Source of the DNA: a virus
Lineage: Duplodnaviria > Caudoviricetes
IMG/VR virus record: IMGVR_UViG_3300035497_000412
Reading direction: 5' to 3' (one strand)
DNA length: 64,000 nt
Shown piece by piece: positions 7,897-56,755 of this stretch (position 1 is its first letter; the number at the start of each line of letters is the position of its first letter). The notes beneath the pieces were generated by a model. That model saw only the letters and a program-made list of their open reading frames with translations, had not been told where the DNA came from and did not search any database. The translations under genes were made by a program, and so were the position numbers.

Positions 7897-7981
7897 GTTG
7901 TGATGCTGGAATAGGTAGACAATTTTCCCTTAGAAGGAAAAGCCGCAAGGCGTGGGGGTTCAAATCCCCCTCACAACACCA
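7897..7981 (+). tRNA. tRNA-Leu(TAG)
   Basis: Acceptor GTTGTGA/TCACAAC, loop CT-TAG-AA, long variable arm, encoded CCA. Confidence 0.9.
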
Positions 7982-8258
7982 GTAGGTTCTCTAGTCACCG
8001 GAGATAAAGACTAGAAAGAGGGTTAAAGGTCTACCTCTATAATAGGCCCATCTATTGACTGGTTCATTTGGAAGGTTCTCTATCCAGTAATAGAATGTAA
8101 GAAAACGGAACCTCTCCCTCCAGATGGCGCCAAAACTCAGGGGACATTGAGAGATTAAGATACTGGTGCTTAATCATAAAATTGCCTTTTGCCAGGGTTA
8201 AATAAAGACAACTGGCGACTCTGCCAGATGAAGGGTACACACTTCTGAAATGAGATTA
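7982..8258 (+). ncRNA. candidate structured RNA (hairpins and tandem pseudoknots) between two tRNAs
   Basis: TCTAGTC/GACTAGA hairpin; AGAGG/CCTCT with GGTCTA/TAGGCC pseudoknot; TCTATT-ACTGG/CCAGT-AATAGA stem whose loop AGGTTC pairs with downstream GAACCT. Confidence 0.45.
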
Positions 8259-8259
8259 T

Positions 8260-8336
8260 GCGGGGGTGGCGCAATCGGTAGACGCGGCTGTCTCAAAAAC
8301 AGTTTATTACGGGTTCAAATCCCGTCTCCCGCACCA
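8260..8336 (+). tRNA. tRNA-Leu(CAA) with short variable loop
   Basis: GCTGT-CTCAAAA-ACAGT anticodon arm, GGTTCAAATCC T arm, ACCA end. Confidence 0.85.
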
Positions 8337-8479
8337 AAAATTCTTTTTGATTTTTATAAAAAATATGATATAATATTTATAGAAAATTAAGAAAGGAATT
8401 GATAATATGTTTGATGATTTTGATACCCAGATTCAGAGTGATGAATTGGCTTATTACTATGAAAATTGGGAGGAGATCA

Positions 8480-8617
8480 ATGAAGAAGAATATTTTTAAG
8501 AAGTCTTCTGAAGAACTTCAAGAGTATTTGCAATTCCGTAAGAGAGGATTTAAAGTAGAGCCTAAGAAAGGTAAAGGTTCTTATAAAAGAAAAAGTAAGT
8601 ATAATAAGCTCCCTTAA
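8480..8617 (+). CDS. ArfA-like alternative ribosome-rescue peptide
   Basis: FRKRGFKVEPKKGKGSYKRK matches the ArfA KKGKGSYxR motif; GGAGGAG RBS. Confidence 0.65.
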   Translation: MKKNIFKKSSEELQEYLQFRKRGFKVEPKKGKGSYKRKSKYNKLP

Positions 8618-8619
8618 AT

Positions 8620-8694
8620 GGCGCATTAGTCAAGCGGCTAAGACGGCTGACTTTCGATCAGCAAACAGGAGTTCGATTCTCCTATGCGCTACCA
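8620..8694 (+). tRNA. tRNA-Glu(TTC)
   Basis: GCTGA-CTTTCGA-TCAGC anticodon arm, T arm, ACCA. Confidence 0.9.
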
Positions 8695-8723
8695 TGAACC
8701 TTTGTTTTGGTTTTCTTTACGTT

Positions 8724-8752
8724 AAGACCTGGGCAAGTCTTGAAACTACCCA
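8724..8752 (+). ncRNA. H-type pseudoknot motif, copy 1 of 3
   Basis: AAGAC-CTGGGCA-A-GTCTT-GAAAC-TACCCA; covarying homolog of 13156 and 13870. Confidence 0.55.
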
Positions 8753-8786
8753 TTCCTCAATTTTGAAGAAAGGTATGGTAAGATTT

Positions 8787-9014
8787 ATGAAAATTACAAA
8801 TATCAATCAGATCCATACAGTGCTTGCGACTATTGATAACTGTAAGGGTGATGTGCAGCTGAGATTTAATAATGGCGATTGGTTTAGTCTGAAGTCTCGG
8901 TTTAGTCGTTATGTTGCCATGGACGCTCTTATCAGAGATTGCAATGAAGAGCTTGAGCTTTATTGCTGCAATCAGCAGGATGAAGAATATCTTTATAAGA
9001 TTCTTCAAGGTTAA
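8787..9014 (+). CDS. small HPr-fold-like protein
   Basis: IDNCKGDVQL...FSLKS pattern resembles Clostridial HPr-like proteins. Confidence 0.45.
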   Translation: MKITNINQIHTVLATIDNCKGDVQLRFNNGDWFSLKSRFSRYVAMDALIRDCNEELELYCCNQQDEEYLYKILQG

Positions 9015-9021
9015 AAAAAAT

Positions 9022-9169
9022 GAGCTAGTGGCGCAATGGTAGCGCAACGCACTTGTCATAATAGTATAAGAAATATAGTTCTTATTTATAAGAAAAGATA
9101 TAAGTCCAAATCTTATTTATGGCACCATTAATGCGTGGGTTGCGGGTTCAAATCCCGCCTAGCTCACCA
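9022..9169 (+). tRNA. tRNA-Lys(TTT) split by a 73-nt tRNA-like insertion (exons 9022-9054 and 9128-9169)
   Basis: Acceptor GAGCTAG/CTAGCTC+ACCA; anticodon stem ACGCA/TGCGT; joining the exons gives loop CTTTTAA. Confidence 0.8.
9055..9127 (+). ncRNA. degenerate tRNA-like element nested in the tRNA-Lys anticodon
   Basis: GTCATAA/TTATGGC acceptor stem + A + CCA; T arm ATAAG-TCCAAAT-CTTAT; AT-drifted D and anticodon arms. Confidence 0.75.
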
Positions 9170-9344
9170 AATAAAGACCAGCTAATAGGGAACCTAGAAT
9201 ATTGCGTCTATGGCTGCTGGAATCCGCTACCTTTGCTATATATATAGCACAAAAGACCTTTTTCCTAAGAGGAGTCTTTTACGTTAGGCGAAACATTATG
9301 TGGAATTTTTCGTTTGTTTTTCTTTCCTCTTAGTTTATATATTT

Positions 9345-9434
9345 GCAGAAGTACTCAAGTGGTGAAGAGGTCGCTCTGCTAAAGCGATAGAACGAGTAAT
9401 CGTTGCGAGAGTTCAAATCTCTCCTTCTGCGCCA
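9345..9434 (+). tRNA. tRNA-Ser(GCT)
   Basis: TCGCT-CTGCTAA-AGCGA, long variable arm, GCCA end. Confidence 0.9.
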
Positions 9435-9437
9435 TAT

Positions 9438-9527
9438 GCTCAGTAAACCGGACAAGCGCGCCGGAGCTGTCTTGAAAACAGTTAGTAGGGTGAAACCTAT
9501 GGGGGGCGGGACCTCTGCTGAGCGCCA
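9438..9527 (+). tRNA. tRNA-Ser(TGA) with non-canonical D and T loops
   Basis: GCTGT-CTTGAAA-ACAGT, long variable arm, GCCA end; T loop lacks TTC. Confidence 0.8.
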
Positions 9528-9532
9528 TATAT

Positions 9533-9606
9533 TTCCTGGTAATTTAATGGTAAAATGGCCAACTTATAATTGGTTCACGATAGTTCAATTCTATCCCAGG
9601 AAACCA
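9533..9606 (+). tRNA. tRNA-Ile(TAT)
   Basis: TTCCTGG/CCAGGAA acceptor, GCCAA-CTTATAA-TTGGT anticodon arm, ACCA. Confidence 0.85.
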
Positions 9607-9607
9607 A

Positions 9608-9680
9608 GAATAAAGACCTTAACAGCAATACTTTATTTGAAAGTAGGAGTTTATTAAACTTTTTATATAAGGTCTTGTTC
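9608..9680 (+). ncRNA. Y-RNA-like stem, copy 1 (AGAC-N5-CAGCAA...GTCTTG)
   Basis: Terminal helix AAGACCTTA/TAAGGTCTT followed by the conserved CAGCAA. Confidence 0.6.
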
Positions 9681-9684
9681 TATA

Positions 9685-9754
9685 GAGGATGTAGTGTAAA
9701 AGTAACACGCCATGTTTGGGACATGGAGTAGCGGGGCAGTACCGACATCTTCTA
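9685..9754 (+). tRNA. tRNA-Pro(TGG), atypical T arm, no encoded CCA
   Basis: CCATG-TTTGGGA-CATGG anticodon arm; acceptor GAGGATG/CATCTTC; followed directly by a ribozyme. Confidence 0.7.
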
Positions 9755-9811
9755 GGTTCACAATGGAAAATACCTTCACGCGGTGTGAACTGTTTAATAC
9801 TAAATTTTTCC
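9755..9811 (+). ncRNA. minimal HDV-like (theta-type) self-cleaving ribozyme
   Basis: P1 GGTTCAC/GTGAACT (G.U at the cut), P2 GGAAAA/TTTTCC, P3 ACC/GGT, L3 TTCACGC, J4/2 CTAA. Confidence 0.85.
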
Positions 9812-9933
9812 AAAAGACGCAACCAGCAATTTATTTTTTTTAATGGAGTTATATGTCACAAGTTCGAGTCTTGTCAATCAGCGGGATTGTAGCTCAGAAG
9901 GTAGAGCAATAACATAAAAAATGTGTCTTGTTT
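9812..9933 (+). ncRNA. YrlA-like Y RNA with a circularly permuted tRNA module
   Basis: Closing helix AAGACGC/GTGTCTT plus CAGCAA; inside, T arm 9858-9874, loop-closed acceptor-like stem 9875-9889, D arm 9892-9907, all closed by GTTAT/ATAAC. Confidence 0.75.
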
Positions 9934-9938
9934 CATAT

Positions 9939-10013
9939 AGGGGTGTAGCATAAAGGCTAGTGCGGCAGGCTTTGACCCTGAAGATAAGTGTTCGATTCAC
10001 TTCATCCCTGCCA
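9939..10013 (+). tRNA. tRNA-Gln(TTG)
   Basis: CAGG-CTTTGAC-CCTG anticodon arm, T arm, GCCA end. Confidence 0.85.
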
Positions 10014-10044
10014 TACAAAGATAAAAATAGAAAGGAAGAGAGAT

Positions 10045-10794
10045 GTGGCCGCAATTACTTTTAATGGCGCTGTATCAACTTGGTACAGTGGTTCCGCAAG
10101 AGTGTGGAGTTGCAGTAGTAGTTCTAATATAACCTATTCAAATCTTAGTGAAGGTTATATTGGTTATTATAAACCTAGTTCTACTGGATACCCATATGTT
10201 ACTTGTATTCGATTCACAGTAAGTGACTCAGGTTCTTTGGCCTTTTCTCCATCTTCACTTACGTTATGCCGGTAGAGCGGATATCCAACTTCTGGAACTG
10301 TTCGATGGCTTGTAAGTAAGACTGGAATAAGTTCTAGTAATGTTGATAGTATCTCAAGTTTAAGCAATAAGATTATCACAGAGCAAACCGCTTCCTGGAG
10401 TAGTAGCGATTTAGAAAAGTTTACTTTAAATATTGGTACTGCGACGGGCACTTTTGCTACTGATACTACTTACTATTTATGGATATATGGTTCATCTACA
10501 TCAGATGGACGTCTTTAGATTTATAATCCGACAAGTGCCACTTATTAGACAGTAACAACTCGTCCGGCTTTTACTTGGTCCAGTCTTACTGCGACAGATG
10601 CTAACACGTTAGCTGGATATGTTAATACTTATGTCAAATCTGGAGGAGCCACCACAGTTACGCAAGGCAGTAAGATTACAGCAACTTGGTATAATAAAAT
10701 TGCAGGAACTCTTGGGGTTTCCACAGTTACTACTGGCACGAAAATCACTAAAACTTTGCTGACTGCGTTAGCAACTGCATACAATTCCTATTAA
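10045..10794 (+). CDS. Ser/Thr-rich putative virion protein (3 in-frame TAG=Gln)
   Basis: Continuous frame from GTG 10045 to TAA 10794 when TAG is read through; beta-rich composition. Confidence 0.65.
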
Positions 10795-10806
10795 GGAGGC
10801 ACGTAC

Positions 10807-12198
10807 ATGAGTTTACAAATTTGGATGCCTCTTAATGGACATTTAAAAAATTTTGGATTAAGTAATGTAACTATAACCAACCATGGAGCAACGGCTAATA
10901 GCGATGGAAAAACTGGTTCATGTTACTATTTTGATGGAACCGACGATTATATAGAGATTTCCATCCCATCAACTATCACTTCTTTAAAGAACACTTCTTT
11001 AGCTATGTGGGTTAAAGGTAATTAGGCTTTTGGAGGTTTCTCCACTGATGGTACTGGAGTAGCTATTATGACCGCTTTTAATGCCAATTGGCATTTTTAT
11101 GCTTCTACTTGGGCCTATGTATCGGGTGGCAATATCGTAGATGGCGATTGGCATCATATAGCTTGCACGGTTGATGATGATACAATTACGACTTATCGCG
11201 ATGGTGTAAAAGTCGCAACTGCTTCAATCGCTTCTACTGGAATTTTAACTGATTTAACTTCTTCTAATTTTATTGAACTTGGTGCCGATCACCCAGGCGG
11301 TGATGAGTTTGGTACTGATTATATTAATGATTTTAGAGTATATGATCATTGTTTGTCTCCAAAAGAAGTGAAAGAACTTAGTAAAGGATTAATATTGCAT
11401 TACAAACTTGCGGACGCCGGCACTACTGAATATGATTGTTCTGGCTATATGCGTAATGGAACTAAATCTAGCGCTATTACTGCGAGTACCGACTCTCCTA
11501 GATATGATGGTTGCTGTGTTTTTGATGGGTCTAGTACATATATTGCCGCAGGTGAAGATGCAAAAGTTACAGATGAGATTTCAGTTTGCTGGTGGGGTTA
11601 TATGAGTGATTGGAGCGCATATCAAACTGCTATCAGTTGCACTGAAAATGCTGGTTGGAACTTTCAGCCATACAGTAATAATACTTTACTCTGTTGGATG
11701 GCGGGAACAGGTTCTTCTTCTAATACGTATAAACAAACCACTTACTCTCTTTCTAAATTGAGTTCTGGCTGGCATCATATCGTTGGCACTTATGATGGTT
11801 TACTTTTAAAATTATATGTAGATGGTGCTTTAGTTTCCTCTCTTACCGCTTATACGACAAAAACTCCGCTTTATTATAATTCTGCTAATGGCATTTTTGT
11901 CGGCAGCGAAGCTGGAAGTAATACGACAACACCAACAGGCCCTTATTTTAGTGGAAGCCTATCTGACTTCCGTATTTACGCTACAGCACTTTCCGCAGAT
12001 GATGTGGCAGAGTTATATCATACTTCTGCCATTGCGGATAATTCAGGAAATTTTTATGGTTATGAATTATCCGAAGGTGATAACTTAAATATTAGTAAAA
12101 CTGGTGTTATAAATGGTTCCGTCTTCCAAGAAGAAGATGGAAAGACAAAAATTGGTAGCGATGGAACTATTTATGCGAACATTTTTTATGAATATTAA
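10807..12198 (+). CDS. double LamG/ConA-like domain protein (TAG=Gln at 11023)
   Basis: FDGTDDYI, WHHIA/WHHIVGTYDG and INDFRVY/LSDFRIYATALS LamG repeats; the two track ORFs are in frame. Confidence 0.8.
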
Positions 12199-12266
12199 TT
12201 TGACTTTTTAAAAATTTTTTGATATAATATATATACAGTTAAGGAAGAAATTATTCTTCCTTACAT

Positions 12267-12340
12267 GGTCGATTAGTTTAATGGTAGAACAGGATACTTG
12301 TAATATTCAGGCGCGGGTCCGATTCCTGCATTGACCTCCA
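12267..12340 (+). tRNA. tRNA-Thr(TGT)
   Basis: GGATA-CTTGTAA-TATTC anticodon arm, TCCA end. Confidence 0.85.
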
Positions 12341-12385
12341 TGTGGTTACGTAATCTAAAAAATAAGAGAAAGAAGGCTTATACTA

Positions 12386-12739
12386 ATGGGCAATTATCCC
12401 ATCGACAAGTATAAATTTGTTGAAAGGACAACTAAGGAAGGAGTCCAGTAGGTTATAGCAATCTCTACATATGCGGGCAAGACAGTGAAAGGTGTCGCTA
12501 ATTGCGATCCAAGTGATAGATATTCATTTGAAGCAGGTAAAGCTCTAGCGGCGGCCCGCTGTGACTTAAAGGTTGCTACGAAGAGGGCTGCTCACGCAGA
12601 GCAGAGACGCCAAGAGGCACTTGAAGCATTAATTGTTGCGGAGAACGATGTTTCTCGTATGACAGATTATGTAAATGACGCTATTGTTGAAGCCGCGGTT
12701 GCGGAAGAGCGATTAAAGTCATTGATTGAAAAGTATTAA
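12386..12739 (+). CDS. hypothetical protein (one TAG=Gln)
   Basis: ATG 12386 is in frame through TAG to AISTYAGKTVKGVANCDPSD. Confidence 0.65.
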
Positions 12740-12785
12740 TAATTTTATAAGGGATAAGTATTACCTTATCCCTTATAAATCTTAT

Positions 12786-13099
12786 AGTGGCATGGTGTAA
12801 TGGTAGCACAGCGGTCTCTTGAAAATTGGACACCTAGCGTCGAAAGTGCTAGTGTGAATGGAGCCTAAAACGGGGAAACCCTAAGTGAATTTTTCATATG
12901 GCAATCCCGTGCTAAACTTCTACTTGTCAGTAGAAGAAATGTGTAGAGACTATATAGTTCCAATCTAACCCAAATTTTGGTATGATTAAGAGATAGTCCA
13001 GACCACAACAATTATTTTGGCTATGGAAACATAGTGTGGTAAGAAAACCGTATCCCCCTGAAGGAGTAAGTGAAAGTTCGAATCTTTCTGCCACTGCCA
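12786..13099 (+). tRNA. amber suppressor tRNA(CTA) with group I intron (exons 12786-12819 and 13044-13099)
   Basis: AGTGGCA/TGCCACT+GCCA; stem GCGGT/ACCGT; spliced loop CT-CTA-AA; long variable arm. Confidence 0.8.
12820..13043 (+). mobile_element. group I intron in the suppressor tRNA anticodon
   Basis: Core AAAACGGGGAAA, AATCCCGTG, GTAGAGACTA and AAGAGATAGTCC; follows U, ends in G; IGS ATTGGA pairs with TCT|AA. Confidence 0.9.
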
Positions 13100-13155
13100 G
13101 AAGTCTTCACGTTGGCGATGATGTTTTGACTAATTCTGTTAAAATAGATAGTTTT

Positions 13156-13183
13156 TGTCCTGAGTATGACATTAAACTGCTCA
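13156..13183 (+). ncRNA. H-type pseudoknot motif, copy 2 of 3
   Basis: TGTC-CTGAGTA-T-GACA-TTAAAC-TGCTCA. Confidence 0.6.
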
Positions 13184-13403
13184 TATTTATAAAAAGACTT
13201 GAAAAAAAAATAAAATTTGATTTTTCTTAAAATTTATAGTATAATATATATAGAAAGTGAGAGAGAGGATAAGATTTATATGAGAACTGTAGAATCTATT
13301 CAGAATAGAATTCATCTCCTTGAGAGTCGCGATCCGGTAACTAACGCAAATATTATTCGTAAGCTAAAGCGACAACTGAGAAAGCTTTCTTAATATAATA
13401 TTT

Positions 13404-13465
13404 AAAGGCGCAACCAGCAAATTTATTGTTATTTTATTAAGGGTTATAAATAACGCGCCTTGTTT
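13404..13465 (+). ncRNA. Y-RNA-like stem, copy 3
   Basis: AAGGCGC-AAC-CAGCAA...GCGCCTTG, with compensatory changes relative to the other copies. Confidence 0.6.
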
Positions 13466-13472
13466 TTTATAT

Positions 13473-13823
13473 GCCGCCGTGGTGGAATAGGTAGACACCA
13501 CAGACTTTTTGGAATACACAAGGACAACTTCATTAAAATCTTCCAAAAAAGTGTATTCTTAATAGAGCCATAAGATAGGAAACTTCTTATGGGATGTGCG
13601 CTAATTCGGCGAAACTCTCTTTGAGACAACGCCGAGCTAAGTTCAGATTTATCTGATAAATGTGTAGAGATCATATACGCACCTCCTAAGTCAGTATAAC
13701 TGATATGGAGAAGACATGATCCAGACTACAACGGTTTTGTCCAACCGGCTATGGCGACATAGAGTAGTAGGAAAATCTGTTATTGGAAACAATGTGCCGA
13801 TTCGAATTCGGCCGGCGGCACCA
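13473..13823 (+). tRNA. tRNA-Leu(TAA) with group I intron (exons 13473-13507 and 13772-13823)
   Basis: Stem ACAGA/TCTGT; spliced loop CT-TAA-AA; long variable arm; ACCA. Confidence 0.88.
13508..13771 (+). mobile_element. group I intron after U34 of tRNA-Leu(UAA)
   Basis: AATTCGGCGAAA, AACGCCGAG, GTAGAGATCA and GACATGATCC (P7); terminal G. Confidence 0.88.
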
Positions 13824-13869
13824 GCCCCTTGGGTCGGGGTATGAAAATAATACTTCACACAGTTACCTC

Positions 13870-13896
13870 TGTCCTGAGCATGACATTAAACTGCTC
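13870..13896 (+). ncRNA. H-type pseudoknot motif, copy 3 of 3
   Basis: TGTC-CTGAGCA-T-GACA-TTAAAC-TGCTC. Confidence 0.6.
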
Positions 13897-13942
13897 TTCG
13901 GGTTTATTAAATCCTGAACAAAGGAGCGTTACCTCTGTATAT

Positions 13943-14018
13943 GCGGTAGTAGTTCAATTGGTAGAGCACTTGCCTTCCAAGCAAGTTGTTGCGAGTTCAA
14001 GTCTCGTCTATCGCTCCA
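13943..14018 (+). tRNA. tRNA-Gly(TCC)
   Basis: CTTGC-CTTCCAA-GCAAG anticodon arm, TCCA end. Confidence 0.9.
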
Positions 14019-24750: not shown

Positions 24751-25443
24751 ATGATATATGTAACTTCAGATTGGCATGGTTATTTAGCTTTATATGACGA
24801 AGCTAAAAAAATATTATCTCCAGATGATACCGTGTATTTTTTAGGAGATATTATTGATAGAGGTCCAGAGCCTTGGAAAATTTTTAAAACCCTTTATAAA
24901 GACCCCCAATTTATTCTGCTTTGCGGTAATCATGAAGATATGCTTATTAAAGCTTTGAATAATCAATTAAAGTCTATAGAACTTCTCCGTCAAAATGGAG
25001 GATATGAAACTTATATGCAAGTTCTTCAAGAAAAAGACGTTGAAAAGTGGGTAAAGCGTTTACAGTCTTTACCATTAATGACATCTTTAAACAATGAAAA
25101 AGGACAAAATTTGATTTTATGTCATGCAGGGTATACTCCAAAAGAAGGCTTCATTCCCACCTCAGATGATTTGTTATGGAATCGAAATCATATTTACAAT
25201 AATTGGAGTGGTGATGATAATACCATTGTAATTCATGGACACACCCCCATTGCAAGTATGAATAAAAGATTTAAAAAAGCAAATGACTTTTATGAAACAG
25301 AAAGATTTACCACATTGCAAACTTCAGCAGTTTTATATTATTGTGACAAGCATAAAATCGATGTAGATATGGGCACAGTAAAAACTCATATGGCAGTTCT
25401 TCTAAATATAGACACTTTTGAAGAAATTATTTTAAAAATCTAA
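24751..25443 (+). CDS. Ser/Thr protein phosphatase-like metallophosphoesterase
   Basis: SDWHG, LGDIIDRG, GNHE, HAG, HGHTP. Confidence 0.85.
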   Translation: MIYVTSDWHGYLALYDEAKKILSPDDTVYFLGDIIDRGPEPWKIFKTLYKDPQFILLCGNHEDMLIKALNNQLKSIELLRQNGGYETYMQVLQEKDVEKWVKRLQSLPLMTSLNNEKGQNLILCHAGYTPKEGFIPTSDDLLWNRNHIYNNWSGDDNTIVIHGHTPIASMNKRFKKANDFYETERFTTLQTSAVLYYCDKHKIDVDMGTVKTHMAVLLNIDTFEEIILKI

Positions 25444-25725
25444 ATATAGAGTAGGTGGTTTATATGGCTAGGAAAAACATTGTTGAGCATGATTTTTATT
25501 GTCTGAATTGCGGCAAGCGCGCTTTGACTCTCCCGCGCAAGCAAGGACATCAGCATGAGAGATTTCATAGAAAAAAACTTTATTGCCCTTGGTGCCAAAT
25601 GAAAGTCAATGCGATTGAATGTAAAACTTGGGAAGATAGAATTGAATTTCAGGAAAATTTTGAAAAAGGAATTTATAAGGAAGAGGCTGCCGCAAGTATT
25701 GAGTATGCGCTAAATGAGAGGAAAT

Positions 25726-26199
25726 ATGATTAAAACGTCCAAGAATTTATATTTACTTTGCGGGATTCCAGGATCTGGGAAATCGACTTTTGTTAAGAAC
25801 GACCTTGCGCGTACTCATGGCAAATGGATTTCACGAGATGAGGTAAGATTCAGTATTGTTAATGATGATGAAGAATACTTTTCTCATGAGGATGAAGTTT
25901 TTAATACTTTTATCATTTGGATTAATGAAGCTCTTAATAATTATGATGATGTCTATGTAGATGCTACTCATTTAAATGAAAGAGCTAGAAATAAAGTTCT
26001 GAAGCGTCTTAACTTATTTGATGTAAATATTATTGCTGTCAACTTTAATGTAAATGTTAATATCTGTTTAGAACGTAATTCCAAGCGAGAAGGTAGAGCT
26101 TGCGTTCCTGAGAAGGCCATCCGCAATATGTATGCAAGTTGGCATCCTGCTAAAAAGGGAGAGCTATTTAATTATACAGAAATTATTAATATTGAGTAA
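25726..26199 (+). CDS. AAA_33 P-loop kinase (polynucleotide kinase-like)
   Basis: GIPGSGKST, ISRDEVR, DATHL, CLERNSKR. Confidence 0.8.
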   Translation: MIKTSKNLYLLCGIPGSGKSTFVKNDLARTHGKWISRDEVRFSIVNDDEEYFSHEDEVFNTFIIWINEALNNYDDVYVDATHLNERARNKVLKRLNLFDVNIIAVNFNVNVNICLERNSKREGRACVPEKAIRNMYASWHPAKKGELFNYTEIINIE

Positions 26200-26215
26200 A
26201 AAGAGGGTGATTTTT

Positions 26216-26783
26216 ACGATCTGGTTTACTTCAGATTGGCATTAGCCACTTTAATCATAACAAGGACTTCATTTGGAAATCAAGAGGATTTTCAAGCGTT
26301 GAAGAGATGAATAAGGAAATTGTGTTTCGACATAATCTTTTTGTTTCTCTGTGGGATGATGTCTATGTACTTGGTGATCTTTGTCTTGGCGCGGATGACG
26401 TTTATGAAGATAATAAACGTCTTATTGAATCTTTGAATGGCAGACTTCATATTGTGCTGGGAAACCATGATAGCCAAAAGCGCATTGAAATGTATAAAAC
26501 TTGCAAGAATGTTGTTGAAATTTGCGGCTATGCTACAATGCTAAAGTATAAGAAATACATTTTTTATATTAGCCATTATCCAACTTTGACAAGTAACTTT
26601 GATAATACTAAGCCGCTAAAAGCAAAAACTATCAATCTGTGTGGACATGGTCATGTTGAAGACAAGTTTGCGGATATTGATAAAGGCTTGATTTATCATG
26701 TGGAAATGGACGCACACAGTTGCTACCCTATTGCCCTTGATGATATTATTGAACAACTTAAATATAGATATTTAGAGGTATGA
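26216..26783 (+). CDS. metallophosphoesterase; ACG start and a 7-nt out-of-frame insertion at 26243-26249
   Basis: FTSDWH|FNHN is restored by skipping 7 nt; LGDL, GNHD, SHYP and GHGH downstream. Confidence 0.7.
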
Positions 26784-26949
26784 GCTTTTCTCATACCTCT
26801 TTTTTTTTAATTCAATTTTCGTTAGGCTAGACACGCTCGCTTGCTGATTTTTCACCCGTATAGCATTTTTTTAACCAAAAAGTTGGATTTGCTTTTTCCG
26901 GTTTTTTTTAGTATAATAATATTAATAGATTAGAAGAAAGGAGAATCTT

Positions 26950-27390
26950 ATGGTAAAGGAAAAAATTGAATTTAACTGGATTGAAGAATTGAGTATGGCT
27001 ACTTGCAACCTTGAAGTTAATGGCCATGTTTTCCATGGATCTGCTACTTGCCATCCAAAAGATAAAGATATGTGTAGTGAAAAAACTGGAGAAGAAATTG
27101 CCTATCGTCGTGCCACAATTAGTTATCTGTAGTATTTAAAGGAAAATTACCAAGGACGAATTCAAGGTTTAAAACAATTTTATTATTCAATTAATCAAAG
27201 TAAAAAATATAATGCGGATAGTTATGAAGCTATTATGCTACGGCGTCAAATACGTCTTCTTGAAGAAGAATTAGATATTATTAAAGAAATGATTATTGAA
27301 GAAAAACATGGTTTAAGAACTTATATTTCTTTAAAAGATGATTTTTATAATACAGTTCGTTCTATTAGGGGTAAGGACAAGAACTATTAA
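26950..27390 (+). CDS. hypothetical protein (TAG=Gln at 27130)
   Basis: G.A.CHP.D....KTG.EIA motif; frame continues to TAA 27390. Confidence 0.65.
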
Positions 27391-27691
27391 TTTTATATTA
27401 ATAAAATACTACTATTAATAGAAGGATTCATATCTTCAAGTAAAAAAGGAGTGTGGTTTATATCGTTTCGTTATTATTTTTTTTACTGGGGATAATTTTT
27501 ATTATTTTTGTTTATCCTATAATTGACGGAGTGTGTTCTATTATATTAACGCAAATAGAATACATTAAGGGGATATATGCTCTTAAAATTTCTAAGTTAA
27601 ATTTGCAGATATCGTCTTTGGATGAAGACAAAGAAACAATGAATCCAATAGGTTTTGTGATTAGTTCAGACAAAGATGAAGGAGGAAACAA

Positions 27692-29228
27692 ATGAAACGC
27701 AATTTCTATGATACAAGCAGTCTACTATTAAGAGCTGATGATTTATTTTCAAAAGAAGAAAATATAGCCTTTTCTTCCATAACTTTACAAGAATTGGAAA
27801 GCATTAAAAGTTCAACGAGTAAAGATTTAGATATAAAATTTGCAGCTCGAAAACTTCTTCATCTTTTTATTAGACATCCAAACGAATATGAAGTTTTTAT
27901 TTATAATGATAATATGAATACTCCTATTTGCAAAAAGGGGCTAGAATTAACAAATGATACCAAAATTCTAGCAACTGCTATAGCATATGATCAAGCATAT
28001 CCAGATGAAGTTATATTTATTACTAATGATTTAGCTTTATACAATATTGCCAATCTATTTTTTGGTAATGATAGTATTGATATGGTTGAAGAGGATAAAG
28101 CAGATGATTACACTGGATATTTACAGGTCAATATGAGTGAATAGGAAATGGAATATTTTTATTCTAATATGAATAAAAATATTTATGATTTATTAGTAAA
28201 TCAATATTTAGTCATTTGTGATAAAGATAATAATTTTGTTGATAGCTATTGCTGGACGGGTGAAAATTATCGTCCTTTAAATTATGATGCTTTTAATTCT
28301 ATTTGGTTTGGTAAGGTTAAACCTTATAAGAATGATGTATATCAAAGACTGCTATTTGATAGCTTATATAATAATGATATGACTATCATTAGAGGTCCAG
28401 CTGGATGCGGTAAGAGTTTTTGCGCAATGAGCTATTTAATGTATGCGCTTGATAAAGGCATTATTGATAAGATTTATATTTTTTGTAATCCAGTAGCTAC
28501 AAAAGATTCCGCTCGACTTGGGTTAATTTAAATTAGGGTAAGGCTCAAGTATAAAACTCCGTGAATTGCTGGAACCTCCTTAGAGCTATACAAACCACAA
28601 CATAAACATGAAATAAGGTTAAATGTGAAGGTTTAAGAATTGTGTAGATTGGACAATCAGCAGCGAAGCCTCGAATAGAGGAACGTTCATCGACTATCGA
28701 AAAGCGCATATGCGAACTTAGTAGAGTAGGATAATTATCCGAAGCGCGGAGATTCTATTTTTAGAATAAGATATAGTCAGGCTTTTGATGAAAGTCAAAA
28801 GGTTAAATGTTTACCCTGGCGATAAGAACATGAAGCTTTTAGATTCTCAGATTGGAAATTTTTTAGTCGGTAAATTTGGAGGAATGGAAGCCGTAGATGA
28901 ATTAATTGAAAAAGGTCAATTGATTTTAGCACCAATTTCAGATTGCAGAGGAACCGATTTAAGTGGAAAAATTGGAGTTTATATGACTGAAGCGCAAAAT
29001 ACAACTGTTGATATAATGCAATTAGTTCTCCAAAGAGTTGGCAGTAATTGTAAAGTTATCATTGAAGGTGACGATAAAGCACAAGTTGATTTAAATGCTT
29101 ACTCCAATGGAAACAATGGTCTAAGAAAAGCTTCTCAAGTTTTTAGAGGACAAGATTATTATGGAGAAATTACACTAAATGCTTGCCATAGATCAAAAAT
29201 TGCTAGACAAGCAGAATTAATGACCTAA
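27692..29228 (+). CDS. phoH: PIN-PhoH protein (TAG=Gln at 28142; intron 28524-28809)
   Basis: PIN YDTS/ELE/NDTKI/TND; Walker A GPAGCGKS; spliced LG|FYPGD; RG, EAQN, GD..QVD. Confidence 0.85.
28524..28809 (+). mobile_element. group I intron in phoH
   Basis: AATTGCTGGAA, AATCAGCAG, CATCGACTA and AAGATATAGTC; removal restores the frame. Confidence 0.9.
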
Positions 29229-37866: not shown

Positions 37867-38811
37867 ATGATTATTATTGGAATTATTTGCCTTATTATTG
37901 GACTTGTGGTCGGTTATGCCGTTTAGCGGCCAAAAGTTAAGGCAACGCAGATTTTAGATAAAGAAACGGCCCAAAAGAATCAACAACTTTAGATTGAACT
38001 TGCGCAATTAAGCGCACAAAGAGATGAATTTAAAGACTCTATCCAAATCTTAGAAAATTAGTCTAAAGAAGCTGGAGAAAAATTTCTTGCGCAAGCAAAA
38101 CGAGCAGCAGAACTTAACTTTGAGCAACAAACTGAGGCTTTAGCACGGTCTTACCAAGAGAACAAAGAACAAAGTGATGCTGAATATCTAAATGTTCTTG
38201 AAGATTTAGCTGCTAATGCACAAAAGCAAATCCAAGAGTATCAAAGAAAGATTTCTGATTGTAAAGAAGAATTCATAGAGCTTAATAGAACTTTAGAGCT
38301 AAAAGCTTCCGAAGTGGCAGCCGCAGTTGAAGCGAGTAAAAGAGCTGAAGAAATGGAAAATAAAAAAGATTTTTATCGGCTTGTATTAAGTGACGAAGAT
38401 ATTTCAGAGATTAAGCGCTTGCGTGAAGTAACAGCCTATTTGCGTAATAGTGAACCTATTAACAAGGTTATTTGGAAAACTTATTATGAAAAACCTTATA
38501 CTGATTTAGTTGGTAGAGTAGTAGGAACTGGCGTTCATACTGGTATTTATAAAATTACAAATATTGAGAATGGTAAGTGTTATGTGGGACAAGCTCGTAA
38601 CATTGCTGAACGCTTTCGCCAACACATTAAAAGAGGTATCGGTGCGGAGACCCCTACGCGCAATAAACTCTATCCAGCTATGTTAGCTATTGGAGTAGAA
38701 AATTTTACTTTTGAAGTAATTGAAGAATGTGATGCGTCTATGCTGAATGAAAGAGAAGACGCATGGCAGCAGTATTTTAAAAGTATTGAATATGGATATA
38801 GCATTAAATAA
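37867..38811 (+). CDS. membrane-anchored coiled-coil protein with C-terminal GIY-YIG domain (3 TAG=Gln)
   Basis: N-terminal TM helix, heptad region, GIYKITN...YVGQA..I.ERF.QH. Confidence 0.7.
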
Positions 38812-49310: not shown

Positions 49311-50497
49311 TTGGTTCTTACTAATAAGCAAGAAGCGGGATTGAAAGAGATTGTAGCCAGATACAACGCAGGAGAAAAATATACTGTTGTATCTGGCTAC
49401 GCCTGAAATCCGGCGTAGGAAAATCAACATTGGTAAAATTTGCCATTGAAGCACTTGATGCTTCTTCAAAGGCTGTGGCTTTTTGTGCCTACACCGGCAA
49501 AGCCGCAGAAGTCTTGCGAAAGAAAGGCAATAAAGGAGCAATGACACTTCATAGACTTCTTTATGATAGCTATCCTCGTAAAGGCGGAGGTTTTTATAGA
49601 AAACCGAAACCTAAATTAGAGTATAATATAGTGGTCGTTGATGAAGCATCAATGATTCCTAAAACTATGATAGATCTTTTACTCTCTCATAAAATTTATG
49701 TAATTTTTTTAGGTGATCCTTTCCAATTGGATGTTATAAATAAGGAAGAGGCCCATGATTTACTTGACCATCCCCATGTTTTTCTAGATGAAGTTATGCG
49801 TCAAGCTGCTGAATCAGAAATTATTCGCATGACCATGAAAATTCGTAATATGGAAAATATTCCATATCAAAATGGTTCAGAGGTAATGGTTATGCGCAAG
49901 TCTCAATTAGTTGATGGCTGTTACACTTGGGCAGATCAGATTCTTTGTGCTACCAACAGAAAAAGAAAAGAAATTAATGATTATGTGCGGCAGATGCTTG
50001 GTTTTAGCGGGCTACCACAAGAGGGCGACCGCATGATTTGCCTAAGAAACTACTGGGATGAATGCGCTTCTAATGGTGATGCCCTTGTTAATGGTTCTAC
50101 TGGAATTATTCATCAGCCGATGGAGGGAGAAGTGCGAGTCCCCCGCTGGTTACAAATAGAAAATAATGCTCTTCAAACTATTGACTGTTCTTTTGAAACA
50201 GAAGAGGGGTCTTACTTTGGAGGTATCCGTATGGATAGGTGCATGATTGAGACTGGTGAAAAATGCGTTGATTGGAGAACTTCTTACAGATTAGGCCAAT
50301 TGAAAAGCAGAATTGGAGATATTGTCCCAAGAGAATTTGATTTTGGTTATGCTGTTACAACATGGAAAGCGCAGGGTTCAGAATGGCCAAAAGTTCTAGT
50401 TATAGAAGAAAACTTCCCTTTTGACAAAATGGAACACGCACGATTTTTATATACTAGTTGTACAAGAGCTAGTGAAAAATTAGTACTAGTGAGGTAA
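49311..50497 (+). CDS. RecD/Dda-like SF1B helicase with an 8-nt out-of-frame insertion at 49404-49411
   Basis: LT.KQ; SGYA|GVGKST restored by skipping 8 nt; TGKAA, DEASM, GD..QL, RQ, KAQGSEW, YT..TRA. Confidence 0.8.
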
Positions 50498-50854: not shown

Positions 50855-53800
50855 ATGAAGAGTAAAACTTTCCCAGGAAGTCTTCATAATCATTAGTGGA
50901 GTATACCCAATACAGTAACACAAGACTTCGTGATTGTATTATTAAAGAAAATGATTTAATCGATTATGCGATTGAATTAGGACATGAAGTGGTAGCTATT
51001 ACCGACCATGAATGTATTAGTAATGCCATTAAAGTCCAAAAGTATTATAACAAAATTAAAAAAAACCATCCTAATTTTAAAGTAATTTTAGGTAATGAGA
51101 TTTATCTTTGTCGTAATGGTTTAACAAAAGACAATTTTATTAAAGGGCAAGACAAGTTTTGGCACTTTATTCTCTTGGCGAAAGATGCTATTGGTCATCA
51201 ACAAATTAGAGAAATTTCTACAAGAGCATGGTATCGTTCATGGATGACAGGTAAAATGCGGCGAGTGCCAACTTACTATCAAGACATTAAAGAAATTATT
51301 GGCGCCAATCCGGGCCATGTGATTGGGTCAACGGCCTGCCTGGGCAGCTTTTTATCCTCTTTAGTCCTGCAATATGAATCTTCTGACCAAAAAGAAGAAT
51401 ATTTAAATCAGATTCGTTATTGGGTTGAAGGTATGGAAAAATTCTTCGAAAAAGGGAATTTCTTCTTTGAACTTCAGCCCTCTGCTTCAAAAGAACAAAC
51501 TTATGTAAATCAGTTTTTAGTTTCTCTTTCTTCTGAAATGAATATTCCATATATTATTACAACAGACAGTCATTATCTTACTAAAAAAGATAGACCTATT
51601 CATAAAGCTTATTTAAATGCACAAGAAGGTGAGCGTGAAGTTGACAGCTTTTATGCCACCACTTATATGATGAATACAGAGGAGTTAGAGAGTTATTTAG
51701 ACTTAAATGAAGAGCAATTAGAAATAGCATATCAAAATATTAGAAAAATTAAAGATATGTGTTCTGATTACGATTTGCAAAAACCATTAAGAATCCCAGA
51801 ATTAACATGGAAAAAGCCAAAAAATTTGGTTAATCCTGAACAATATTATAGTCAGATTCCCTATCTAAAAGCTTTTATCAATTCAGACTACAATGGAGAT
51901 AAAATACTTGCACAGCATATTGTAGACAGACTTTTTTGGGATGAAACGCTTCAAAATCAAAAGACTTACGAAGCAGTAGATGAATGTCTTAAAATGACCT
52001 GGGAATCTTCTCTTGTCAATAAAACGCATTGGAGTGCTTATTATTTAAATCTACAAAAAATTATTGATACAGTGTGGGATGCAGGGAGTTTAGTTGGTCC
52101 GGGTAGAGGTTCTGGTGTTGGGTTAAAAGTTAGGCTCAACTAAAAATTCGTGAACTATATTGCTTATAGGTGTCTAGTATAAAATACTAGGCTAACGGTT
52201 CAGAAGGTAGTAATACCATTATGAGTAAGGGAACCTAAGTCTTTTTTACTAAAAAGATAAGGAAATACCGTGTCAAGTTTGTTTAATAAAGGTTCATCCT
52301 TTTTTATATATAATAGGAAGATTAGTAATAATTAACTTAATTTATATATAAAAAAAGGAGAAGATAAAGTGGGTTTTATTTATAAAGCAACAAATAATAT
52401 AAATAAAAAAGTCTATATTGGAAAGACCACAAGAACCCTTAAAGATAGAAAAAAGGAACATATTAGTCACGCCAAATCAGAAGATTATTATTTTCATAAC
52501 GCTTTAAGAAAATATGGTGCTGAGAATTTTACTTGGGAAATAATAGAAGAGGTAGAACTAGATAAAATAAACGAACGAGAATGTTATTGGATTGAATATT
52601 ATAAAAGCTATAAAGATAAAAGTAAAGGATATAATTTAACTCCTGGCGGTGAAGGATTTAAATTATCAGAAGAAACCAAAAGGAAAATATCTGCGGCTAA
52701 CGCCGGTAAAGTAAGGACTCCTGAAATGAGACAGCATTTAAGTGAAGTTAAAAAAGCGTTACATTTTAGGCATACAGAAGAAACAAAGAAAAAAATGAGT
52801 GCAGCAAGAAGAGGAAGAAAGCTTTCTCCTGAAACAATAGAAAAATTAAAACAAATAGAAAGAACTTCAGAATGGAGAGAAAAAATTAGTAAAGCACTTA
52901 AAGGAAGAACTTACTCGGAGGAGACAAAAATAAAAATGAGTGAAGCCGCAAAAGACCATTTTACTTTTTATACTTCTAACGATTTAATTTTTCATACTTG
53001 GGGAGAAATTTTCCGGTATCTTAAAGATAATAATCTAATAACTACCGATGATATTGCGGTTTGTAGAAATTGTATTAGACCAGCAATAGATAATCTAGAA
53101 CTTGTTCGTTACGGAATGAAATGGAAAACTTCAATTTTTACAGAGGAAGAAAAAATTATTGCTCCTAGAAAATGTTCTGAAAAAACCAAGAAAAAAATTG
53201 GTGCAGCAAATAGCAATAAAAACGAAATTGTTATGATGATTCGATTTGACGGAGATAAACAAGAATTTGCTTCAAGAAGAGAAGCTTATGACTATTGTAT
53301 TAAACAAAAATACATTCCTAATACACAAGTTTATTCAAAATTTTCTTCAAAAATAGGAGAAGCTTCAAAAACAGGCAATAAATTTAAGGGAATGAACTGG
53401 ATTATTAAACAAAAAGATGTAGAGACTATCGAAAAGTAAAAAAAATTTTTTACCGAGTAGAGTAGGGCGGAAGATAAGCTACCGTTCGAAGTGCGAATTG
53501 CTTATATGTTAAGTAAAGAGATAGTCCATACTATATAGAAATATATAATAAATAGTTATACTTTTATATATCCTCGATATTACACAAATAAATCCCTTGC
53601 GGGAAACTACTAAGACATATAGCTGGAGATTTCTTAATCCCAGTCGTGTATCTGTGTTGGATTAATATAAAATTTTAAAAAGAAATTTTAATAGTCCCCT
53701 TACATTGGAAGATGTAAAGGAAAAACTCTGAATATCAGGGAAAGCCCTTAGAGCTTTTATTACCAAGCGTTAATGAAAATGAAACGTGGCTGAAGTAATT

Positions 53801-56755
53801 ACTCAGGTATGGTAACAAGATAAAAGATTGGGTAATCCTGAGACATAGCCCTAAGTCTTTAAGGATAAGGGAAGGTCGCAACGACTACCAAGGAGAGCCG
53901 AGAAACGGTTATGGTATAGTCTATTCCCCTAGTTAAATATCGGGAAACCGAGGGTATAAAAGGTTGACTTTGATATCGAAGGAGGCAGACGTCCGCAAGT
54001 TTTGGCGAAGTTCCGAGAAGTGTATGGTGAAGATAGAGTAGCTAACGTTATTACTTTTGGAACAGAAAAATCTAAATCAGCCATTTTAACTGCGGCTAGA
54101 GGTTTAAATATTGAACACGATGATGCACAATATTTAGCTTCTTTAATTCCAGCAGATAGAGGTATTACAAGAACTCTTAAACAATGTTATTATGGAGATC
54201 AAGAAAGCGGATTTGCTCCAATAGCTCAGTTTGTAAAAGAAATGGATAATTATCCCGAGTTATGGGAAGTTGCTCAAAAAATCGAAGGTCTGGTTTGTCG
54301 ATCTGGAATTCATGCAGGCGGTGTTATTTTTGTTGATGAATCTTTTACTAATTCAACTGGATTAATGCGCGCGCCAGATGGTACTATTGTAACAGCATAT
54401 GACCTTCATGATTCAGAAGATGTGAGTCAGCGAAAGCTAAGGCTCCTAAATACCTAATCACTTATCAGTGATGTTATATAGGCTCTTAGAAATAAGGTAA
54501 GTAAAAAATACCTATATAGCACCGGGGAAACCTAAGTAATAAAAAATTATATGGCGATCCCGGACTAAATTGGGTATTACCCATAAATGTCTATCGACTA
54601 TCCCCCAGAAGGGGAGTAAGGTTACTATTGATACGTAATCTGAAACGGTATTCTCTCAAAAAGAGTAAGAGATAGTCAGTACCATTGGAAACAATGGAAT
54701 AATACGCTAATTAAATACGATGCACTTTCTGTTGAAGCAGAAGATAAAATTCATTTATGCTTAGACCTGTTATGCAATGCTGGATATATTGAGCGTAAAC
54801 CTACTTTAAAAGAAACATATGAAAACGCTTTGAATATTTATTCTCTTGAAAGAGATGACCCTAAAATGTGGGAAATGACATGGAAACATGAGATTCTTTC
54901 TTTGTTCCAAATGGAGAAGCAAAGTGGTATTCAAGGCATTGCATTAACAAAACCTAAAAGTGTTGAAGATTTAGCCCACCTTAACTCTGTAATTCGTCTA
55001 ATGGCTCAAGAAAAGGGTGGCGAACAGCCTCTTCAAAAATTTGCTAGATTTAAACAAAATATTAATCTTTGGTATAAAGAAATGAATAGATATGGCTTAA
55101 CTAAAGCAGAGCAAGAATTATTAAAGCCATATCTCAGTAGTTCTTATGGTATTTGTGAAGCGCAGGAAACTTTTATGATGCTTGTTCAGATTCCTGAGTG
55201 CGGCGGGTTTGATCTAAACTGGGCCGATCGGCTCCGCAAGAGCATCGCAAAGAAGAATCCTGCGGAGTTTGATCAATTGACAAAAGAATATTTCGTTAGA
55301 GCCAATGAAAAAAATTTAAGTAAAAATTTATGTAATTATGTGTGGAATGTTCTAGTGTCTACTAGTCGCGGGTATGGATTTAATCTATCTCATACATTAG
55401 CATATTCTCTAGTAGCTCTTCAGGAAATGAATTTAGCTTATAAATATCCTACCATTTATTGGAATTGTGCTTGTCTTATTAATGATAGTGGTAGTATTGA
55501 ATATGATAAAGATGTAGATGCAGAAGACCAAAATACCAATTATGACAAAATTGCCCAAGCTATTGGTAAAATGCGTGAAGCTGGAGTTAAAATTAGCCTT
55601 GTAGATATAAACAAATCAAGTTATACTTTTATTCCAGATGAAAAGAATAATCAAATTCTTTATGGAATGAAAGGTCTTGTAAATGTTAGCGATGATTTAG
55701 TAGAACAAATTATTGCAAACCGTCCTTATACTTCTATTAAAGACTTTTACTATAAAGTAAAGCCCAAAAAACAGTCAATGATTTCATTGATTAAAAGTGG
55801 TGCTTTTGATACAATGGAAGACAGAAAATTTGCGATGGCCTGGTTTATTTGGGAAACGTGTGATAAAAAGAGTAGACTTACTCTCCAAAATATGCCAGGA
55901 TTAATTAAATATAACCTCCTGCCGCAAGATACTAATGAGCAAGTTATGGCTCGTAGAGTATATGAATTTAACAGATATTTAAAAGCAGTTTGTAAAAATT
56001 CTAGAGATACAGAAAATTATATTCTAACAGATAGAGCCATTAATTTCCTTGATGAATTAGAAATAGATTATAATGCTGATAGAACTTTATCTATTAAAAA
56101 ATGGGATAAGCATTATCAAAAATGGATGGATATTTTTAGAAATTGGATTACTGCTGATAAAGAAAATATCCTAAAATCTTTGAATCAAATCATTTTTATG
56201 GAAGAGTGGAATAAATACGCTAAAGGTAATATTTCAGCTTGGGAAATGCAAGCAATGTGTTTCTATTATCATGAACACGAACTGGCGCATTTAAACACAT
56301 CAAAATATGGGATTGTAGATTTCAATAAGCTTCCAGAAGAGCCAATTATTGAAAAGTCTTTCTCAAGAGGCGGAAAAACAATTAATATGTTTAAGCTATT
56401 TAAAATTTGCGGCACTTGCATTGCGAAAAATAAGGCAAAAGCTACTGTTACGTTACTTACTACTTCTGGAGTCGTAGAAGTTAAGTTCCGTAAAGAGTAC
56501 TTTAGTTTATTTGATAAGCAAATTTCCATAAAGAATGATGATGGAACTAAAACTATAGTCGAGCGCAGTTGGTTTAATCGAGGAAGTATGATTGTTGTCC
56601 AAGGTATCCGCTCTGGTGATAACTTTATTGTAAAAAAATATGCTTCTTCTGTTGGGCATCAACTTTATAAAATTCTTGAAGTTATTAATGGAACTGACCT
56701 AAAATTAACTAGTGAAAGATTCCAAGGGGGTGAAGAATCTGAAGACGAAGAATAA
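50855..56755 (+). CDS. dnaE: DNA polymerase III alpha subunit (3 group I introns plus an 11-nt insertion at 50894-50904)
   Basis: HNH|TQYS, AITDH, TDSHY, GRGSGVG|F, RFLN..R..LD|VDFD, HAGG, S|LIKYDAL, YGFNLSH. Confidence 0.9.
52124..53555 (+). mobile_element. group I intron 1 of dnaE, carrying a GIY-YIG homing endonuclease
   Basis: GCTAACGG/ATACCGTG, GTAGAGACTA and GAGATAGTCC; removal restores the frame. Confidence 0.9.
52369..53439 (+). CDS. GIY-YIG homing endonuclease with NUMOD3 repeats
   Basis: FIYKATN...YIGKT, GYNLTPGG, repeated SEETK.K(I/M)S. Confidence 0.9.
   Translation: MGFIYKATNNINKKVYIGKTTRTLKDRKKEHISHAKSEDYYFHNALRKYGAENFTWEIIEEVELDKINERECYWIEYYKSYKDKSKGYNLTPGGEGFKLSEETKRKISAANAGKVRTPEMRQHLSEVKKALHFRHTEETKKKMSAARRGRKLSPETIEKLKQIERTSEWREKISKALKGRTYSEETKIKMSEAAKDHFTFYTSNDLIFHTWGEIFRYLKDNNLITTDDIAVCRNCIRPAIDNLELVRYGMKWKTSIFTEEEKIIAPRKCSEKTKKKIGAANSNKNEIVMMIRFDGDKQEFASRREAYDYCIKQKYIPNTQVYSKFSSKIGEASKTGNKFKGMNWIIKQKDVETIEK
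53663..53962 (+). mobile_element. group I intron 2 of dnaE (no ORF), in the catalytic Asp motif
   Basis: AATATCAGGGAA/AATCCTGAG, CAACGACTAC and GTATAGTC; removal restores the frame. Confidence 0.9.
54428..54706 (+). mobile_element. group I intron 3 of dnaE (no ORF)
   Basis: CCGGGGAAA/ATCCCGG, TATCGACTA and GAGATAGTC; removal restores the frame. Confidence 0.9.

Follow-up and report, generated by a model that had tools for sequence, protein, structure and literature searches.

How could a full-length enzyme be made from a gene whose catalytic motif is broken by a stop codon and continues in another reading frame? This question is raised by a phosphoesterase gene in the 64,000-nt stretch of phage DNA that we analyzed (the window; all features are given on its + strand). 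The window reads GAT TGG CAT, TAG, C, CAC, TTT AAT CAT at 26234-26258, and its sequence confirmed the claim of a first-pass annotation that a 7-nt, stop-led insertion lies in the DxH motif of this gene: taking out 26243-26249 yields SDWHFNHNK, with four equivalent registers for the placement of the gap, owing to a CA..CA repeat. The frame-A head (VIFTIWFTSDWH; 26207-26242) carries the DxH metal-binding motif and then runs into the stop. Its last codon, the CAT for the His of DxH (26240-26242; the take-off codon), is followed by the in-frame TAG with an invariant spacer C (26243-26246; TGA and C in two relatives, L066 and L067) and by CAC (26247-26249; the landing codon), a second His codon read by the same tRNA-His; both assignments draw on the sequence and on relatives. 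Frame B reads HFNHNKDFIW from 26247 (HFNHNKDFIWKSRGF...) and is open to a TGA at 26781-26783, its body (26250-26783) holding FNHNK and then the GD, GNHD and GHGH motifs. Readthrough of TAG as Gln meets a TAA three codons on, as the annotation had also stated; the frame with TAG as a residue runs into 26252-26254, where ribosomes reading it would terminate.

We identified the gene from its profile match and its motifs. Frame B by itself scores 20.0 bits with Pfam Metallophos (PF00149), below the cut-off of 21.5, with a match that begins at profile position 32; the joined frames score 30.2 bits, above the gathering threshold of 21.5, with a match from profile position 1. Moreover, the metallophosphoesterase motifs DxH, GD, GNH(D/E) and GHxH are all found, DWH in frame A and GDL, GNHD and GHGH in frame B. 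Thus, the gene is a calcineurin-like phosphoesterase split over two frames. It directly abuts a P-loop kinase gene (AAA_33; 25714-26199), and a strong intrinsic terminator (11-bp stem and T run; 26774-26808) overlaps its stop codon. The start codon in the window is uncertain: GTG 26207, 8 nt after the kinase stop, is the only in-frame canonical start and abuts the Shine-Dalgarno sequence, and ACG replaces the ATG GCA of the relatives. Expression of the phosphoesterase in the window may depend on translational coupling, and could be weaker from this copy, which has neither the ATG nor the nuclease gene described below. A second metallophosphatase gene (24751-25443) lies 800 nt upstream of the phosphoesterase. 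A megablast search of deposited phages with 25700-27400 returned no match.

Conservation of the gap and its hairpin

Eight assemblies (three Logan runs and five JGI metagenomes, one contig being of 156 kb) match the window at 100% identity across 2-6.5 kb that include the site. Since these assemblies are independent, the gap is no sequencing or assembly artefact. Its recurrence in 11 further distinct homologues is, moreover, far above chance. We collected these from homologue contigs, from a pattern scan of metagenomes and from a looser pattern scan of IMG/VR, for a gap-bearing set of 12 genes (the window, L024, L032, L027, L028, L029, L055, L057, L059, L066, L067 and the P0019 contig); DNA was read for 11 of them, the P0019 locus being known from its protein and gene calls alone. 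Protein identity among the gap-bearing homologues is about 55-65%. In seven of the best 120 database homologues (at most 67% identity) the protein starts with MILWQSGLLQIGISHFNH, which is the frame-B translation of the gap DNA. Gene callers mis-annotate such genes, a point of practical concern: eight database proteins are truncated or carry a false MILWQSGLLQIGISH head through gene-caller errors, and in the eight assemblies of the window allele the prediction is a 158-residue ORF from ATG 26307.

The gap-bearing genes share a common form, which consists of a start codon, GCA ATC TGG NNN ACT TCA GAT TGG CAY, a stop, C, CAY, and then TTT/CTA AAT/AAC CAT. [quoted passage not shown] Nine of these 11 genes have TAG immediately 3' of the take-off codon and two, L066 and L067, have TGA (10 and two over the set of 12), and the next base is C in all 11. 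Among termination contexts in E. coli, C after the stop is the weakest, and the prfB shift site has it too. A ribosome shifted to +1 would meet AGC in the genes with TAG and GAC in those with TGA; since this codon differs between the variants, what is conserved is the stop and no inserted residue.

We found that frame B is open in 11/11 genes with DNA read. In the nine gap-bearing genes that we tested for selection, frame B has no internal TAG (0/9) and the catalytic motifs are all intact, with dN/dS values of 0.07 for L024/L032 (dS about 2) and 0.12-0.39 for other pairs. Thus, frame B of the phosphoesterase is under purifying selection, and the gene is not dead.

For comparison we assembled 15 uninterrupted genes, thirteen of them IMG/VR homologues and the other two L030 and L031. 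The uninterrupted homologues read SD(W/L)H(F/L)xH with exact spacing (...GATTGGCATTTTAATCAT... in the DNA of one such allele), and are collinear with the product obtained by skipping 7 nt. Two short proteins that were suspected of being broken, P0082 and P0098, turned out to come from uninterrupted genes with non-ATG starts. The pattern scans also returned L053, L054 and L060-L065 (the last six from genome contigs), which lie in unrelated contexts and were set aside as chance matches, with no host identified. A gap of another kind is present in L005 and L010, IMG/VR phosphoesterase genes of a separate clade: 4 nt long (TGT TAG C CAT), it lies two codons downstream of the window site and has no cognate landing codon.

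The region before the gap is also distinctive in its predicted RNA fold. In the gap-bearing genes, an 8-9 bp hairpin, C(A/G)AUCUGG ... UCAGAUUG, is formed within the 24 nt that precede the take-off codon, and stops 1 nt short of that codon. In the window this hairpin (CGAUCUGG / UCAGAUUG; 26217-26238) has 8 bp and a 6-nt loop, an energy of about -9 kcal/mol, and ends 1 nt before the take-off codon. Folding energies range from -8.8 to -10.2 kcal/mol in 11/11 gap-bearing genes folded, compared to a mean of -2.1 kcal/mol for the same region of 13 uninterrupted genes, where the hairpin is weak or absent (Mann-Whitney p=2e-5). Synonymous sites are fixed by the stem: gap-bearing genes use AUC alone for Ile and UCA alone for Ser, whereas uninterrupted genes vary (ATT/ATC/ATA for Ile; TCA/TCC/TCG/TCT/AGT for Ser). 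The first-pass annotation had placed the site inside a mini hairpin, TGGC-ATTA-GCCA (26237-26248). This element exists, with 4 bp, but it falls to 3 bp in the TGA variants and thus does not stand as a conserved structure; the conserved one is the 8-9 bp hairpin on the 5' side. We therefore regard the mini hairpin as an unlikely candidate for the main signal, one of its four pairs being lost in the TGA variants.

Distribution of the gap and an upstream nuclease gene

We built a tree of 58 proteins, including 11 gap-bearing genes, from an alignment with the 12 residues beside the gap removed. Gap-bearing genes require eight changes of state on this tree, and several of them have well-supported uninterrupted sisters. 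A single gap-bearing clade was rejected in an AU test (lnL difference 276, p=8.5e-7). In one of the gap-bearing genes, L027, the HLNH of its own clade is kept directly after the landing codon, which suggests, from the sequence of this gene, that exchange reached no further than the landing codon.

A gene for a GIY-YIG homing endonuclease lies between the kinase and phosphoesterase genes in 9/12 gap-bearing loci, compared to 0/15 uninterrupted loci (Fisher p=5e-5). This link was missed in the first-pass annotation, and is an addition to its interpretation. The gene encodes 307-319 residues, scores 33.7 bits with PF01541 and has a weak NUMOD-like match; its copies are 46-81% identical, and its stop overlaps the ribosome-binding site of the phosphoesterase. 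The three gap-bearing loci with no nuclease gene upstream of the phosphoesterase are those of the window, L059 and L029. No member of this GIY-YIG family was found in the loci of L005 and L010, which have the 4-nt gap. Elsewhere in the window, a weak GIY-YIG-like match with 35% identity to the L024 nuclease is found at 38542-38760, within an ORF at 38314-38811.

The extent of conservation around the gap is confined. Mean pairwise nucleotide identity in the 27 nt before the gap is 0.92 among gap-bearing genes, compared to 0.65 among uninterrupted genes; in the 12 nt after the gap the values are 0.90 and 0.71, and in the next 60 nt they are 0.66 and 0.63. Immediately before this stretch, the 3' end of the nuclease gene shows free variation at third codon positions, in contrast to the invariant hairpin and gap. 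Thus, the stretch with the hairpin and gap is under a constraint beyond that of shared ancestry. Conservation of the hairpin region could, alternatively, reflect recognition of the DNA by the nuclease.

Stop-led gaps in the helicase and dnaE genes

Two other instances of the same kind had been noted in the window, in the Walker A motif of a helicase and in the HxH motif of dnaE, and we found both to be present as described. In the helicase gene, an 8-nt TGA-led gap (TGAAATCC; 49404-49411) forms the loop on a perfect 7-bp stem, and its removal yields GYAGVGKST. We found no relatives of this helicase in IMG/VR. Without the 8-nt gap, 49397-49418 becomes a perfect 14-bp palindrome centred on the insertion point (CTACGCC, then GGCGTAG), which may have a bearing on the origin of the gap or on what cuts there. 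In the PHP domain of dnaE, an 11-nt TAG-led gap (TAGTGGAGTAT; 50894-50904) follows the HxH motif, and its removal yields SLHNHTQYS.

Among 20 dnaE loci from IMG/VR most are uninterrupted, but four have stop-led gaps of their own. These are 8-nt gaps after the first His in L035 (TGACCCAA) and in L049 (TAGTTCAA), and an 8-nt gap after the Asn in L045 and L046 (TAGGGAGC), so that the relatives add three further gap types at two other positions of the same HxH motif. The earlier suggestion that the gaps form a system rather than a set of random errors gains support from these three. Furthermore, a 9-bp hairpin ends 1 nt before the take-off codon in the dnaE genes of L035 and L049. No nuclease gene lies directly upstream of the gap-bearing dnaE in L035, L045 or L049.

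In the helicase and dnaE gaps, the final three bases agree with the take-off codon at 2/3 positions (GCC/TCC, CAT/TAT, CAT/CAA). A plain -1/+2 shift at these sites would insert 3-4 residues within the Walker A or HxH motif; therefore, exact skipping is needed at these sites. Further along dnaE, an ORF for an endonuclease with GIY-YIG and NUMOD3 domains (52369-53439) lies between the dnaE pieces at 50905-52143 and 53960-54457, in an intron-like arrangement.

A proposed hop between two His codons and its rivals

We propose, with a probability of about 0.6 judged from sequence comparison, that the phosphoesterase gap is a miniature counterpart of T4 gene 60 and MobA, an indel that confers immunity to the nuclease and is tolerated through a 7-nt hop of peptidyl-tRNA-His. 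Having made M..IWxTSDWH, ribosomes would pause, the P site being occupied by CAY and the A site by a stop whose context is poor (UAG-C or UGA-C). The peptidyl-tRNA-His would leave the take-off codon, the mRNA would advance by 7 nt, and the same tRNA would re-pair with the second CAY, after which reading would restart at UUU AAU CAU and give the normal SDWHFNHNK enzyme. Since the 8-9 bp hairpin would re-form only after its RNA leaves the ribosome, its probable role is to drive the advance of the mRNA or to act as its ratchet. A hop between the two His codons had already been suggested for this site, and fits the independent variation of the two CAY codons, the switch from TAG to TGA, the lack of conservation of the +1 codon and the collinear sister genes. 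The nascent chain at take-off has 10-12 residues; thus, a nascent-peptide signal like that of gene 60 could hardly operate. The synthetic stop-hops that Weiss et al. described in 1987, to which we return below, were reportedly inefficient.

In this proposal the gap and the hairpin-forming 5' end of the gene would constitute a mobile segment, linked to the free-standing GIY-YIG gene upstream. The indel most likely disrupts the target of the neighboring nuclease in the conserved DNA that encodes DxH, by analogy with MobA and gene 60, and its carrier would thereby be protected. The window phage, which has the gap without the nuclease, would have acquired the immune allele by gene conversion or have lost the nuclease.

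We considered four other explanations, and find each of them weaker than the hop. The first, which we regard as unlikely, is a +1 ribosomal frameshift at CAY-UAG-C, whereby AGC and then CAC would be read to give DWH-Ser-His-FNH, two residues longer than the hop product. Shifts to +1 are classically found at stops in a poor context, for which prfB is an example (see also PMC5009743). Moreover, the string T-TAG-C-CA is common to this site and the 4-nt gap of L005 and L010, where such a shift would add one Ser only, and the phage encodes a tRNA-Ser(GCU) that reads AGC. Yet a tRNA paired with CAU has no match in the +1 frame (AUU), and no Shine-Dalgarno-like stimulator lies upstream, in UCAGAUUGG. 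The GAC found as the +1 codon in L066 and L067 in place of AGC also argues against a shift, the stop being conserved and the supposed residue not. Furthermore, a shift would make the 7-nt insert with its duplicated His codon needless, the sister genes have exact DxHxxH spacing, and the helicase and dnaE gaps are insoluble by simple shifting. Quadruplet reading of UAGC by a suppressor tRNA was rejected in view of the TGA-led variants and the unconserved +1 codon.

We hold it equally improbable that the gene is inactivated, at least in the window. On that view the indel would be a scar of nuclease resistance or a mutation in a phosphoesterase that the phage can do without, and the full-length protein would not be produced. 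The window copy itself lends this some weight, as its ATG is missing and GTG 26207 lies right against the ribosome-binding site, and the second metallophosphatase gene at 24751-25443 points the same way. If the gene were dead, however, both frames would hardly be open in eleven diverged genes, the nine tested having dN/dS of 0.07-0.39 (with saturated dS) and intact motifs. In addition, nucleotide-level conservation extends to the stop, His pair and hairpin, and like gaps occur in dnaE and the helicase, each found once in the window.

Removal of the 7 nt before translation appears very improbable. It would occur either as RNA excision (a micro-intron or editing), perhaps by means of phage kinase, phosphatase and ligase, or at the DNA level as variation in the population. 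The helicase gap, which coincides exactly with a loop closed by a 7-bp stem, and the RNA-repair-type genes that adjoin the phosphoesterase site are in keeping with excision, but in every gap an in-frame stop comes straight behind the final sense codon, with a single tRNA fitting the codons on both flanks, features that would be purposeless for excision, and the eight assemblies show gap-bearing DNA only. We know of no enzyme that removes 4-11 nt from mRNA. Least probable of all is a shortened, 158-residue protein from the internal ATG 26307, annotated by gene callers in the eight assemblies, because the DxH metal-binding motif would be missing from it along with 32 conserved residues, and its score without the gene head is below the Pfam threshold, while frame B is conserved upstream of ATG 26307 and frame A up to the stop.

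If the hop is correct, how does it compare with known cases? Gene 60 bypassing involves matched or wobble-matched codons, a stop or a hungry codon in the A site, and a homing-endonuclease cassette (bioRxiv 10.1101/2022.08.31.505936; PMC5009743); the association of the MobA homing-endonuclease cassette with the gene 60 bypass is outlined in PMC5009743, which cites Bonocora et al. 2011, and in Manning and Atkins (bioRxiv 10.1101/2022.08.31.505936). As in T4 gene 60, the phosphoesterase gap is non-coding and interrupts a conserved catalytic region near the 5' end of the gene, with a stop directly after the take-off codon and an RNA structure that adjoins the take-off site. As with gene 60 and MobA, a free-standing homing-endonuclease gene lies just upstream (here in 9/12 gap-bearing loci, the window not among them), some lineages seem to keep the gap after loss of the nuclease, and there has been repeated spread into diverged copies of the host gene.

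The differences from gene 60 are also considerable. The phosphoesterase gap has 7 nt (4 nt between the codons) compared to about 50 nt, has no Shine-Dalgarno sequence, whereas gene 60 has a mini Shine-Dalgarno about 6 nt before landing, and leaves no room for a 46-residue nascent-peptide signal. The take-off stem-loop of gene 60 includes the stop; the phosphoesterase has the 4-bp mini hairpin (3 bp in TGA variants) together with the 8-9 bp 5' hairpin. MobA is an HNH enzyme associated with the large-subunit gene of topoisomerase II, whereas here a GIY-YIG enzyme accompanies an unsplit metallophosphoesterase gene, with no sequence homology between the systems. Unlike the gene 60 bypass, the phosphoesterase hop is a proposal drawn from sequence comparison.

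Three other systems offer partial parallels. In the synthetic stop-hops of E. coli (Weiss et al. 1987, as summarized in PMC5009743), peptidyl-tRNA moves from one codon to a matching one on the far side of a stop; in that summary these are engineered, in-frame hops in which 9 nt encode one residue, unlike the natural, frame-changing gap of 7 nt that is conserved with a hairpin. No natural in-frame stop-hop is known, according to the 2016 review (PMC5009743). The byp elements of Magnusiomyces capitatus mitochondria, in the passages that this review devotes to them (PMC5009743), are numerous short mobile inserts in essential genes that are corrected during translation, as we propose for the gaps here, with landing codons that are sometimes only near-matched. 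Those same passages describe them as 27-55 nt long and mitochondrial, with an unassigned codon rather than a stop in the A site and with no link to a homing endonuclease. The phosphoesterase site resembles prfB +1 frameshifting in its use of stop and C as a slow A-site signal, but has neither a P-site codon that re-pairs in the +1 frame nor an upstream Shine-Dalgarno-like element.

Programmed bypassing in phages has been a single case, T4 gene 60, for over thirty years, and its cassette was called unique in a 2022 preprint (bioRxiv 10.1101/2022.08.31.505936). We found no published description of such a short phosphoesterase gap in the literature, and the papers on TAG-recoded gut phages make no mention of frameshifts or bypassing. 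If true, the proposed hop would be a minimal system of about 45 nt of mRNA, with neither a long nascent peptide nor an internal Shine-Dalgarno, and homing endonucleases would be able to drive frame-breaking indels into essential motifs. The natural variants in both His codons, in the stop and in the hairpin could show what a ribosome needs for hopping.

The state of the genetic code has a direct bearing on the hop. The GIY-YIG genes carry 2-5 in-frame TAG codons aligned with Q, K or E; thus, the phages of those nuclease genes read TAG as a residue. The window phage, too, appears to read TAG as a residue in genes that neighbor the phosphoesterase, where in-frame TAG is found at 27130 and 28142. 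The first of these (27130-27132, in 26950-27390) joins ORFs of 60 and 51 residues, which one pipeline predicts as a single 146-residue gene, and this supports such reading. Because neighboring genes carry in-frame TAG, a suppressor tRNA would compete with the hop; if TAG were read as a residue, ribosomes would go on to the TAA three codons away without a pause, which would count against the hop.

We entertain, as a tentative and rather doubtful extension, that short hop cassettes are a general class, spread by homing endonucleases into the catalytic motifs of early phage genes, and that, in phages which later read TAG as Gln, a TAG-led gap doubles as a switch governed by the state of the code. 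The parts of such a cassette would, speculatively, be a 5' hairpin, a take-off codon, stop and C, and a repeated codon. With the gap as a switch, the enzyme would be made while TAG is unread, and would be turned off once a suppressor tRNA that reads TAG as Gln sends ribosomes to the TAA.

Some other features of the window touch on its TAG codons, possible introns and tRNAs. The PIN-PhoH gene at 27692-29228 is in three pieces, compared to a single 414-residue ORF in relatives. The PIN piece (27692-28144) closes with the in-frame TAG at 28142 and the PhoH head (28148-28531) with TAA, and the PhoH tail (28785-29228) comes after a gap of about 253 nt, which could be an ORF-less intron. A search of the whole window with Rfam at gathering thresholds returned tRNAs only, and no group I intron. 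The tRNA cluster at 7897-14018 has 8-9 genes, including Ser(GCU), Leu(UAG) and Ile(UAU), and one Rfam tRNA match, at 9022-9166, spans 145 nt, which implies a long insert.
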